32,000 nucleotides of DNA, from contig NC_010628.1 in the NCBI RefSeq assembly GCF_000020025.1, forward strand, positions 6,960,001 to 6,992,000, written 5' to 3'. Each line of letters opens with the position of its first letter. Within the stretch, counting starts at the first letter, position 1. The position numbers were made by a program, and so were the translations under genes. The notes under the pieces are model-generated. The model was not told where the DNA came from. It worked only from the letters and a program-made list of their open reading frames with translations, and ran no database searches. The stretch is from Nostoc punctiforme PCC 73102. GTDB lineage: Bacteria; Cyanobacteriota; Cyanobacteriia; Cyanobacteriales; Nostocaceae. Shown here one piece after another: positions 22,405-22,653 of the stretch.

Positions 22405-22478
22405 GGACGTATAGCTCAGTTGGTTAGAGCGCTACGTTGACATCGTAGAGGTCACTGGTTCGAATCCAGTTACGTCCA
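22405..22478 (+). tRNA. tRNA-Val (anticodon GAC), intact; attachment site of the downstream transposon
   Basis: The cloverleaf was read directly. The acceptor stem is GGACGTA/TACGTCC, the D arm is GCTC-AGTTGGTTA-GAGC, the anticodon arm is CTACG-TTGACAT-CGTAG and the T arm is ACTGG-TTCGAAT-CCAGT. The discriminator is A, no CCA is encoded, and a T-run follows. Confidence 0.93.
22422..22443 (+). other. GGTT PAM (22422-22425) plus 18-nt protospacer (22426-22443) inside tRNA-Val, matched by the short crRNA
   Basis: AGAGCGCTACGTTGACAT at 22426-22443 is the exact reverse complement of 22622-22639. It is directly preceded by GGTT. Confidence 0.85.
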
Positions 22479-22485
22479 TTTTTTT

Positions 22486-22600
22486 TGTACAGTGACTAAT
22501 TATTTGTCGTCGGTGACAGATTAATGTCGTTGGGACTAATTAACTGTCGTCGGGACGAATTGATGTCGTTTAGGTGCCAGTGACAGATTAATGTCATTTA
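22486..22600 (+). mobile_element. Transposon end: terminal TGTACAG plus five ~20-bp TnsB-binding-type direct repeats
   Basis: The terminus is TGTACAG at 22486-22492. The repeats are GTGACTAATTATTTGTCGTCGG (22492-22513), TGACAGATTAATGTCGTTGGG (22514-22534), GACTAATTAACTGTCGTCGG (22534-22553), GACGAATTGATGTCGTTTAGG (22554-22574) and TGACAGATTAATGTCATTTA (22581-22600). From memory this closely resembles the ShCAST donor end that I believe is called LE. Confidence 0.85.
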
Positions 22601-22621
22601 TTTACAGAGACTATAGCGATA

Positions 22622-22653
22622 ATGTCAACGTAGCGCTCTCTTTCAACCCTCCC
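22622..22653 (-). ncRNA. Delocalised short (homing) crRNA: truncated repeat GGGAGGGTTGAAAG plus tRNA-Val-matching spacer
   Basis: On the minus strand, a 14-nt truncated repeat (22653-22640) is followed by AGAGCGCTACGTTGACAT (22639-22622). That spacer is identical to 22426-22443 in the tRNA, and the match ends after 18 nt. Confidence 0.8.

Follow-up and report, generated by a model that had tools for sequence, protein, structure and literature searches.

The window, a stretch of 32,000 nucleotides of Nostoc punctiforme PCC 73102, carries a type V-K CRISPR-associated transposon (CAST), i.e., a Cas12k Tn7-like element, inserted beside a gene for tRNA-Val. A unit on the minus strand (22653–22622), consisting of a 14-nt repeat remnant and a spacer of 17–18 nt, is very probably the homing guide of this element as judged from the sequence, and it almost certainly steered the CAST to its site beside tRNA-Val. 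Both the guide class and this exact N. punctiforme locus were published in 2021, and hence the finding is a rediscovery. The class was named "truncated repeat-spacer units" by Hsieh & Peters (2021); it is also called "delocalized crRNAs" (Saito et al. 2021) and "anchor spacers" (Ziemann et al. 2023, PMC9938897).

Row 147 of Table S1 of Hsieh & Peters describes this locus in N. punctiforme PCC 73102 on record CP001037.1, where positions equal those of the window plus 6,960,000; with this offset, the coordinates and the first array spacers coincide. The row places cas12k at 6984000–6985919, tRNA-Val at 6982405–6982478, and the spacer AGAGCGCTACGTTGACA at 6982623–6982639 with its protospacer at 6982426–6982442, and gives AGGGAGGGTTGAAAG as the handle and TTGGTT as the PAM. 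The left end (LE) TGTACAGTGACTAATTATTT is listed at 6982486, the right end at 7010421—outside the window—and the target-site duplication (TSD) as AAAAA. The genes tnsB, tnsC, and tniQ (7007071–7010159) are known for this element only from the published table. The catalogue counts a match of 17 nt (22426–22442) compared with 18 in the sequence and draws the array (22665–23554) so that it takes in the degenerate terminal repeat; otherwise, it holds the same annotation of the locus, with nothing of substance different. The spacer is absent from the supplements of Ziemann et al. (PMC9938897).

The chromosomal attachment site is an intact tRNA-Val gene with anticodon GAC (22405–22478, plus strand; ARAGORN; Rfam RF00005, 75.5 bits) that points towards the transposon. 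The PAM GGTT of the GTN class (22422–22425, plus strand) lies directly 5' of the protospacer (22426–22443, plus strand), which extends from the D arm through the anticodon loop and matches the spacer in 18 of 18 nt. The match begins precisely where the repeat ends and the spacer starts, with 0 nt of backward extension into the repeat, is exactly 18 nt long, and breaks at position 19. On either strand, the tRNA shares no other stretch of 11 nt or more with the rest of the window. The literature gives 17 nt for such guides, and the eighteenth base matched here may be due to chance (probability 1/4) or to shared ancestry. From the last PAM base to the element, there are 60 bp (22426–22485), and TGTACAGTGAC begins at 22486. 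The first-pass annotation had reported the sequence GGGAGGGTTGAAAG (22653–22640) followed by AGAGCGCTACGTTGACAT, the recurrence of these 18 nt in tRNA-Val, the GGTT in front of them, and the 60-bp spacing; all of these statements were verified.

The left end (22486–22598, plus strand; repeat search and catalogue) features the 8-bp terminus TGTACAGT, which is conserved in 10 aligned loci, and repeats of approximately 20 nt resembling TnsB sites at 22494–22513, 22513–22531, 22534–22553, 22552–22570, and 22580–22598. Just outside of it, TTTTT (22481–22485, plus strand) represents one copy of the 5-bp TSD, the other copy lying beyond the window. The element starts 7 bp downstream of tRNA-Val(GAC); as the insertion point is just past the 3' end of the tRNA, the tRNA stays intact. 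With the guide match, a GTN PAM, and the left end at the canonical 60 bp (60–66 bp being typical of V-K CASTs), the locus therefore records how the element chose its site—as had been proposed from the first inspection of the sequence. The accompanying suggestion, that a short match may permit homing while sparing the element from its own guide, found no support. The 5' flank of the guide-coding DNA is AAAG and not GTN, because of which this DNA is not a target, and the occupied site retains an intact PAM and protospacer whatever the length of the spacer. In the Tn7 family, an occupied site would be expected to be shielded by target immunity, which a nearby transposon end confers.

The guide unit lies in the interval from the array to the left end and shares the minus strand with the array and cas12k. 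It starts with the truncated repeat GGGAGGGTTGAAAG, the 5' handle of the crRNA (22640–22653, minus strand; read as the reverse complement of the sequence), and continues directly with the homing spacer—att-targeting or "anchor" spacer—AGAGCGCTACGTTGACAT, which equals AGAGCGCTACGTTGACA(T) (22622–22639, minus strand). The handle agrees with the 3'-terminal 14 nt of the array repeat, GGGTGGGTTGAAAG, at 13 of 14 positions, the one change being T>A, and it carries both segments that pair with the tracrRNA. Upstream of the handle follows an AT-rich linker of 11 nt, AATTTTTATTA (22654–22664, minus strand), and then a degenerate 13th, terminal repeat (22665–22701, minus strand) identical to the array repeat at 26 of 37 positions. 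This repeat has lost the GAAAG 3' end, folds into a 10-bp hairpin, and scored as terminator-like. Together with the linker, it yields a –10-like box, CATAAT (22667–22662), approximately 8 nt upstream of the handle. The linker may act as such a box, and it is conserved in eight close relatives. The unit is thus found at the array's trailing end, 11 nt downstream of the degenerate repeat. The original description of the guide as outside the regular array needs qualifying: the unit abuts the degenerate repeat and is not clearly separate from the array, with 83 nt (22654–22736) between it and the last intact repeat, whose end is at 22737. Promoter and terminator scans gave consensus-level matches only, five compared with 2.5 expected (mean of shuffles), i.e., an approximately twofold excess that is given no weight as evidence; these sequence scans established no terminator and no clear promoter for the unit, and a motif scan found no CvkR box near the guide.

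A tRNA-derived stretch inside a mobile element could also be the duplicated tRNA fragment of an integrase-type island with attL and attR, without any guide. Transfer RNA genes commonly serve as integration sites, and partial copies of a tRNA are frequent in islands. Integrase att repeats duplicate the 3' end of the tRNA in direct orientation. The copy found here is inverted, stems from the 5' half of the tRNA (from the D arm to the anticodon loop), and adjoins the GAAAG end of the CRISPR repeat. Furthermore, the ends of the element are Tn7-like TGTACA termini with TnsB-type repeats, and a Pfam search found no integrase domain among the element's open reading frames within the window. An island of this type is contradicted by the orientation and position of the copy and is extremely improbable.

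The CRISPR array (22702–23554, minus strand) consists of 12 identical 37-nt repeats, GTGGCAACAACCCTCCAGGTACTGGGTGGGTTGAAAG, ending in GAAAG, and 12 spacers of 33–36 nt; Rfam CRISPR-DR15 hits all 12 repeats, in a model orientation opposite to transcription. A search of array and guide against plasmid and phage collections at megablast sensitivity gave no match, neither for the guide nor for the 12 ordinary spacers. The tracrRNA (23754–23974, minus strand) has been placed with approximate ends by alignment with the ShCAST locus, its start being set by analogy to a transcription start site 35 nt after the cas12k stop codon (PMC9938897). It features the anti-repeat AACCCTCCC at 23763–23755 and CTTTC at 23888–23884, the RNA GCUUUC (23889–23884) being complementary to GAAAG. 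The mean column identity of the tracrRNA region is 92% in an alignment of four sequences (the window, ShCAST locus L017, L001, and L023). The homing handle GGGAGGGTTGAAAG is a perfect complement of the tracrRNA segment AACCCUCCC with nine continuous base pairs, and its duplex with the anti-repeat has an energy of –18.2 kcal/mol compared with –13.8 kcal/mol for the array handle. As a general rule, better pairing of the homing handle was rejected, since the two handles differ at this position in many loci, but in either direction: the homing and array handles carry A and T here, T and A in L013, and C and A in L018, L021, and L065.

The cas12k gene (24000–25919, minus strand; ACC83958.1) encodes 639 aa that match the ShCas12k chains 7n3o and 7pla of the PDB over the full length with 1209 bits; no Pfam model matches Cas12k, and the identity rests on the PDB sequences. 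Divergent from it lies a gene for a MerR-family, CvkR-like regulator (25991–26452, plus strand; Pfam MerR_1, 3e-17; ACC83959.1). The intergenic region between cas12k and cvkR contains the palindrome AATACACTATGTATT (25939–25953, plus strand), which resembles a CvkR box with one mismatch to AnnACATnATGTnnT, the motif being taken from PMC9938897. Two such matches occur in the window compared with 1.6 expected, a count that alone is not significant, and the one in the cas12k–cvkR spacer is the only one within the element; by its position, it is a suggestive candidate for a CvkR box. The cargo in the window (26741–32000, plus strand; Pfam and called genes on exact-match contigs) is a BREX system with brxB (26741–27388), brxC (27385–30924), and the start of a pglX-like methyltransferase gene from approximately 30989. 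The element runs on beyond the window, which holds the left 9.5 kb of its 27.9 kb; public contigs with an exact match to BrxC are all 11 kb or shorter and stop short of tnsB, tnsC, tniQ, and the right end.

In the proposed mechanism, the unit, lying on the minus strand, would be transcribed as part of array read-through or through a weak promoter of its own. The handle would pair with the tracrRNA—GGGAGGGUU with AACCCUCCC and GAAAG with CUUUC—and the pair would be loaded into Cas12k. Cas12k would then read GGTT and the 17–18-nt protospacer within the tRNA-Val gene and form an R-loop; TniQ and TnsC would nucleate on the PAM-distal side, and TnsB would integrate the element, left end nearest the target, at approximately 60 bp downstream of the PAM, producing a 5-bp duplication of TTTTT. 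The unit is presumably expressed and processed in Nostoc, and the element presumably active at present. A different use of the same guide would be to park nuclease-dead Cas12k on tRNA-Val, for instance to modulate tRNA transcription or mark the occupied site, with no role in integration. Binding is still possible after insertion, as the protospacer and PAM remain intact; however, the geometry is exactly what integration would leave behind, with 60 bp, a proximal left end, and a 5-bp TSD, and the comparative data require no second role. We regard such parking as the main function of the guide as highly unlikely.

The comparative set consists of 79 related Cas12k loci and the window, 80 in total. 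In each locus, TGAAAG followed by a 17-mer was searched for, allowing at most two mismatches between the 17-mer and its target, which had to be on the opposite strand and no farther than 1.6 kb away in the direction of the element end; the PAM was not conditioned on. A GAAAG-terminated handle followed by a 17-mer that matches a site just outside the left end, usually a tRNA, was found in 57 of the 80 loci, and 57 of the 58 guide matches have a GTN PAM (GT at PAM positions –3/–2). The same search with shuffled spacers gave no match. The distance from the PAM to TGTAYA at the element end has its mode at 60–61 bp. The guide targets co-vary with the adjacent gene and include tRNA-Val, Thr, Lys, Arg, Leu, Cys, Pro, Gly, and Ala, and elements at other tRNAs carry a correspondingly different spacer. 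The survey of related CASTs suggested in the first-pass annotation yielded nine relatives at tRNA-Val(GAC), namely L001, L002, L003, L011, L014, L022, L023, L068, and L071, with the identical 18-nt guide and handles that are identical or within 1–2 nt. Across the tRNA-Val elements, Cas12k is 69–96% identical and the guide spacer is constant, while the flanking spacers are wholly different.

These data bear on the possibility that an AT/GC-balanced 18-mer resembles the tRNA by chance, for which nothing but the shortness of the match speaks. The number of exact 18-mers expected by chance between the 74-nt tRNA and 64 kb of sequence is approximately 5e-5, a value that ignores the exact register with the repeat end, the correct PAM, and the 60-bp spacing. 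In addition, 57 related loci show the same relation although their spacers differ. Chance is rejected by the register, the survey of related loci, and the shuffle control, its probability being practically nil. A further alternative is a fossil guide, i.e., a unit that directed the original insertion and is now an unexpressed relic of an element that may be immobile. The consensus-level outcome of the promoter and terminator scans, the decay of the adjoining terminal repeat, and the loss of tnsBCQ from many cas12k loci (Hsieh & Peters) would fit such a relic. However, the 14 + 18 nt of the unit are invariant in 10 loci amid differing neighboring spacers and linkers, with Cas12k proteins of only 69–96% identity, which points to purifying selection, and intact tnsB, tnsC, and tniQ, both ends, and the TSD are catalogued for the element. 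A relic is accordingly unlikely, and a functional homing guide remains the preferred reading.

The counterpart of the unit in ShCAST of Scytonema hofmanni UTEX 2349 is the delocalized crRNA or att-crRNA (Saito et al. 2021, Cell 184:2441; Hsieh & Peters Fig. 3). Both systems share the order of tRNA, LE, truncated repeat with 17-nt spacer, array, tracrRNA, and cas12k, as well as a nearly identical tracrRNA and the GGTT PAM; Cas12k of the ShCAST locus L017 is 85% identical (tblastn). The left end of ShCAST is described at 61 bp from the PAM, with L-R orientation and a 5-bp TSD, and the distance from PAM to LE amounts to 64 bp in L017 compared with 60 bp here. ShCAST targets tRNA-Leu(UAG) by CAAGTCCTTTTATCCGC and keeps the array-type handle GGGTGGGTTGAAAG, whereas the element of N. 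punctiforme targets tRNA-Val(GAC) and has the T>A change, resulting in a full complement of the tracrRNA anti-repeat. According to papers that cite Saito et al. (2021), delocalized crRNAs direct homing in V-K systems, as shown experimentally for ShCAST, where the unit is reported to be expressed, to mature into a short crRNA, and to be needed for insertion at the att site. For the present element, homing is predicted from the sequence. The shortness of such units is rationalized in the literature by their equivalence to the mature processed crRNA and by the absence of what host type I-D effectors need, such that the self-targeting guide stays private.

The anchor spacers of Ziemann et al. 2023 (PMC9938897) likewise feature a 17-nt spacer that adjoins a truncated repeat R* of approximately 12 nt close to the left end and finds its protospacer in the neighboring tRNA; they also share a GTN PAM, a PAM-to-LE distance of 46–82 nt, and a divergent MerR-type cvkR beside cas12k. 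R* is usually clearly apart from the array, whereas it follows 11 nt after the degenerate terminal repeat here. Type I-F3 CASTs (Petassi, Hsieh & Peters 2020) obey the same logic: Insertion at a conserved chromosomal site is directed by a dedicated self-targeting guide located at the array end or past it, and ordinary spacers aim at mobile elements. They differ in their Cascade/TniQ effector, in a repeat that is full-length and sequence-divergent rather than truncated, in protein-coding or other attachment sites, and in the T-RL orientation.

A more tentative, and on balance doubtful, reading is that the terminal repeat has been remodelled into a small regulatory module giving the homing guide its own transcriptional identity. 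The proposed parts are the degenerate repeat hairpin (22701–22665) without GAAAG, the AT-rich linker with CATAAT, and the T>A handle. The module is conserved in eight close relatives, which may simply be because of recent shared ancestry, and Hsieh & Peters report no conserved motif outside the truncated repeat-spacer unit. If the reading were true, the homing guide would be insulated from array read-through and loaded preferentially, and the module would explain, at the level of sequence, how V-K CASTs decide between homing and the horizontal pathway.

With the class described in 2021, the function demonstrated for ShCAST according to papers citing Saito et al. (2021), and the element catalogued, the locus opens no new question. 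It is a clean natural case of RNA-guided transposon homing, with guide, PAM, target, and product at the predicted distance, and can hence serve as a positive control when mobile elements are scanned for self-targeting guides; the first-pass annotation also shows that such a mechanism is recoverable from raw sequence. Its residual value lies in two unproven details—a terminal repeat that is split and followed by a promoter-like linker, and the better-pairing homing handle—both of which bear on the regulation of pathway choice in V-K CASTs.

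The homing guide of the type V-K CRISPR-associated transposon lies on the minus strand and consists of two parts: a truncated repeat, or handle, of 14 nt (22653-22640, reading GGGAGGGTTGAAAG) and a homing spacer of 18 nt (22639-22622, reading AGAGCGCTACGTTGACAT). The identical 18 nt form a protospacer on the plus strand (22426-22443), which begins in the D arm and reaches the anticodon loop of tRNA-Val(GAC) (22405-22478, plus strand, as judged by ARAGORN and Rfam) and carries the PAM GGTT directly on its 5' side (22422-22425, plus strand). The transposon left terminus TGTACAGTGAC starts at 22486 with TGTACA—the left end of V-K elements being, by convention, the one adjoining the CRISPR array. 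The last base of the PAM is separated from the element by exactly 60 bp (22426-22485). The tRNA-Val gene is oriented toward the left end and stays intact because the insertion point lies 7 bp beyond its 3' end. The first-pass annotation had described this guide, protospacer, GGTT, and 60-bp spacing, all of which were borne out by re-reading the window sequence. The match between spacer and tRNA extends by 0 bases into the repeat, is broken at position 19, and is the sole match of at least 11 nt between tRNA-Val and the remaining window sequence, both strands considered. Exact 18-mers are expected by chance at ~5e-5 for a 74-nt tRNA against 64 kb of sequence, with the repeat-end register, PAM, and spacing not counted in. 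Register and uniqueness, together with this expectation and the shuffle controls of the locus comparison, exclude chance similarity: the 18-nt match is not a chance event. An att duplication of the integrase type is likewise excluded by the copy being inverted, stemming from the 5' half of the tRNA, and abutting the repeat end. No integrase was found in the part of the element within the window.

The most likely course of events starts with the short crRNA, which would pair with the tracrRNA and load Cas12k. Cas12k would bind GGTT and the protospacer within the tRNA-Val gene, TniQ and TnsC would assemble on the PAM-distal side, and TnsB would integrate the element so that its left end comes to lie ~60 bp from the PAM. 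The sequence parts, their register, and the co-variation are directly demonstrated; the unit is presumably expressed and processed, and the element presumably active at the present day. The geometry of the locus agrees with biochemical work on ShCAST: the left end is located there at 61 bp from the PAM, with a 5-bp TSD, while distances of 55-70 bp are scored as on-target and L-R as the correct orientation. A role of Cas12k restricted to binding at the tRNA gene, though possible, need not be invoked. There is no support for the proposal that a short match enables the element to home without targeting itself again: the DNA encoding the guide would be no target at any spacer length because its flank is AAAG, not GTN, and the occupied attachment site retains a perfect PAM and protospacer. 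In the Tn7 family, an occupied site should be shielded by the target immunity that the transposon end next to it confers. In the literature (including Hsieh & Peters, 10.1101/2021.02.06.429022), the short unit corresponds to a mature processed crRNA and is devoid of features needed by host type I-D effectors, so that the chromosome-targeting guide is private to the transposon.

The Cas12k protein was searched against one genome per GTDB species, which yielded 79 related loci, all cyanobacterial, the best being 96% identical (Nostoc sp. WHI). In these and the window, 17-mers after TGAAA[G/C] were compared with the opposite strand up to 1.6 kb downstream, allowing at most 2 mismatches and using neither PAM nor tRNA information. 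Matches were obtained for 58 of 1006 17-mers in 57 of the 80 loci, many of the loci without a match being truncated contigs. GT occupies PAM positions -3/-2 in 57 of the 58, shuffled spacers gave 0 matches, and offset controls gave 2-6 without PAM preference. Between the PAM and the first TGTAYA, a distance of 60-61 bp is the most frequent. The guide targets co-vary with the neighboring gene and comprise, among others, tRNA-Val(GAC and UAC), Thr, Lys, Arg, Leu, Cys, Pro, Gly, and Ala. Nine other tRNA-Val(GAC) elements (L001, L002, L003, L011, L014, L022, L023, L068, and L071) carry the identical 18-nt spacer; a lack of matching spacers in tRNA-Val relatives, which the first-pass annotation had named as refuting its reading, is not observed. 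Seven of the nine also have the identical 14-nt handle; L022 and L068 differ by 1-2 nt. Because this spacer is kept in elements whose Cas12k is only 69-96% identical to that of the window and whose array spacers are entirely different, sequence conservation speaks for selection acting on the unit. A fossil guide, left from an earlier insertion and no longer used, is disfavored by the same perfect conservation across diverged elements and by transposition genes that are intact according to the catalogue of Hsieh & Peters (Table S1).

The PAM-to-element distance is 57-62 bp in the window and in L001, L002, L003, L011, L014, L023, L068, and L071. At these nine tRNA-Val junctions, 4-9 nt of differing sequence lie between the tRNA end and TGTACA, which fits either independent insertions at one site or a tRNA 3' flank that diverged rapidly. 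In at least one locus scored as non-tRNA by ARAGORN, L018, a group I intron (9352-9622) adjoins the target site of the guide, which may point to an intron-containing tRNA-Leu missed by the program. L021, L065, L074, and L076 share its spacer, and part of the non-tRNA target class may be an annotation artefact. A further homing guide, ATTGGTAAAAGTCATGGAATT, is common to five relatives (L033, L039, L041, L052, and L079). Its target match comprises 21 nt in four loci versus the usual 17, and in L041 14 nt exactly or, if one mismatch is allowed, 17 nt; no tRNA is targeted here, and in L039 the target matches no Rfam family.

Both the class and this exact locus are already published. Hsieh & Peters (bioRxiv 10.1101/2021.02.06.429022) described that essentially all Cas12k elements encode, at or beyond the array end, a remnant of the repeat (~13 bp) followed by a 17-bp spacer, and that this spacer corresponds to an attachment site in a tRNA, flanked by a GTN PAM, with spacing and orientation as in experiments. 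The units were named delocalized crRNAs by Saito et al. 2021 (Cell 184:2441) and, according to papers citing that study, were shown there to direct homing in V-K systems. Ziemann et al. 2023 (PMC9938897) reported "anchor spacers" of the same architecture, 46-82 nt being the distance from PAM to LE, and described a CvkR repressor. The catalogue in Table S1 of Hsieh & Peters lists cas12k (6984000-6985919, minus strand), tRNA-Val (6982405-6982478, plus), the spacer AGAGCGCTACGTTGACA (6982623-6982639, minus), its protospacer (6982426-6982442, plus), the handle AGGGAGGGTTGAAAG, PAM TTGGTT with 0 mismatches, the array (6982665-6983554), the left end TGTACAGTGACTAATTATTT (6982486), the right end (7010421, TSD AAAAA), and tnsB, tnsC, and tniQ (7007071-7010159). 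Each of these positions is obtained by adding 6,960,000 to the window coordinate, and the catalogue gives the same spacers as the window, which therefore corresponds to CP001037.1 6,960,001-6,992,000. The catalogued element is complete, measures 27.9 kb, and is annotated as the first-pass annotation had proposed; the reading as a transposon-encoded guide for the tRNA-Val site is supported.

The cas12k gene (24000-25919, minus strand) encodes 639 aa that align over the full length with ShCas12k (PDB 7n3o and 7pla) at 1209 bits and have no Pfam match. A MerR-family gene is divergent from it, and between cas12k and this merR/cvkR lies a CvkR-box-like palindrome, AATACACTATGTATT (25939-25953), with 1 mismatch to the published CvkR box AnnACATnATGTnnT; such motifs are no more frequent in the window than expected by chance, and only this position is suggestive. 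Cargo consisting of a BREX anti-phage system—brxB, brxC, and a pglX-like methyltransferase gene from ~30989—adjoins cas12k/cvkR (26741-32000), the pglX-like gene and the element extending past the right edge of the window. Many public assemblies of sequencing runs (53 index blocks) contain an exactly identical BrxC on contigs whose gene order is the same. The chromosomal part features tandem repeats unrelated to the transposon at 3724-3906 (42 nt, 4.4 copies) and 14816-15103 (87 nt, 3.3 copies).

On the minus strand, cas12k is followed by the tracrRNA, 12 repeats, a degenerate repeat, a linker, the truncated repeat with its spacer, ~20-nt TnsB-site-like repeats of the left end, and TGTACA. The array (22702-23554, minus strand) has 12 identical 37-nt repeats, GTGGCAACAACCCTCCAGGTACTGGGTGGGTTGAAAG, and spacers of 33-36 nt; the 12 ordinary spacers found no match in plasmid or phage collections by megablast. 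Rfam CRISPR-DR15 matches the array (22737-23554) on the plus strand; transcription must be on the minus strand because of the orientation of cas12k, the tracrRNA, and the GAAAG 3' handle. The degenerate 13th repeat (22701-22665, minus) is identical to the array repeat at 26 of 37 positions and has lost the GAAAG end. An AT-rich linker of 11 nt (22664-22654, minus) connects it to the truncated repeat, so the location "outside the regular array" is only partly right: the unit starts just 11 nt past a degenerate terminal repeat.

In a four-locus alignment (window, ShCAST L017, L001, and L023), the ~220-nt tracrRNA region has a mean column identity of 92%, with the 3' anti-repeat GGGGGAACCCTCCCC and an internal GCTTTC invariant. 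The handle retains exactly the two segments of the repeat involved in tracrRNA pairing: GGGAGGGUU forms 9 Watson-Crick pairs with AACCCUCCC (-18.2 kcal/mol, versus -13.8 kcal/mol for the array handle with its U-U mismatch), and GAAAG pairs with CUUUC. A single substitution relative to the array repeat, T>A at 22650 (the minus-strand A in GGGAGGG), renders the handle fully complementary to the anti-repeat. In many related loci, homing and array handles differ at this same position, in either direction; homing unit and array may have separate histories. The degenerate repeat keeps a 10-bp hairpin, in which wobble pairs replace the U-U mismatch of the array repeat, and a -10-like CATAAT (22667-22662, minus strand) precedes the homing handle by ~8 nt. 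This arrangement of degenerate repeat and linker (22654-22701) is kept in 8 close relatives and could represent a terminator and promoter module or merely shared ancestry. Across the wider family of related loci, neither the better tracrRNA pairing of the homing handle nor the AT-rich linker with CATAAT is upheld. Both the linker and the better-pairing handle could bear on pathway choice.
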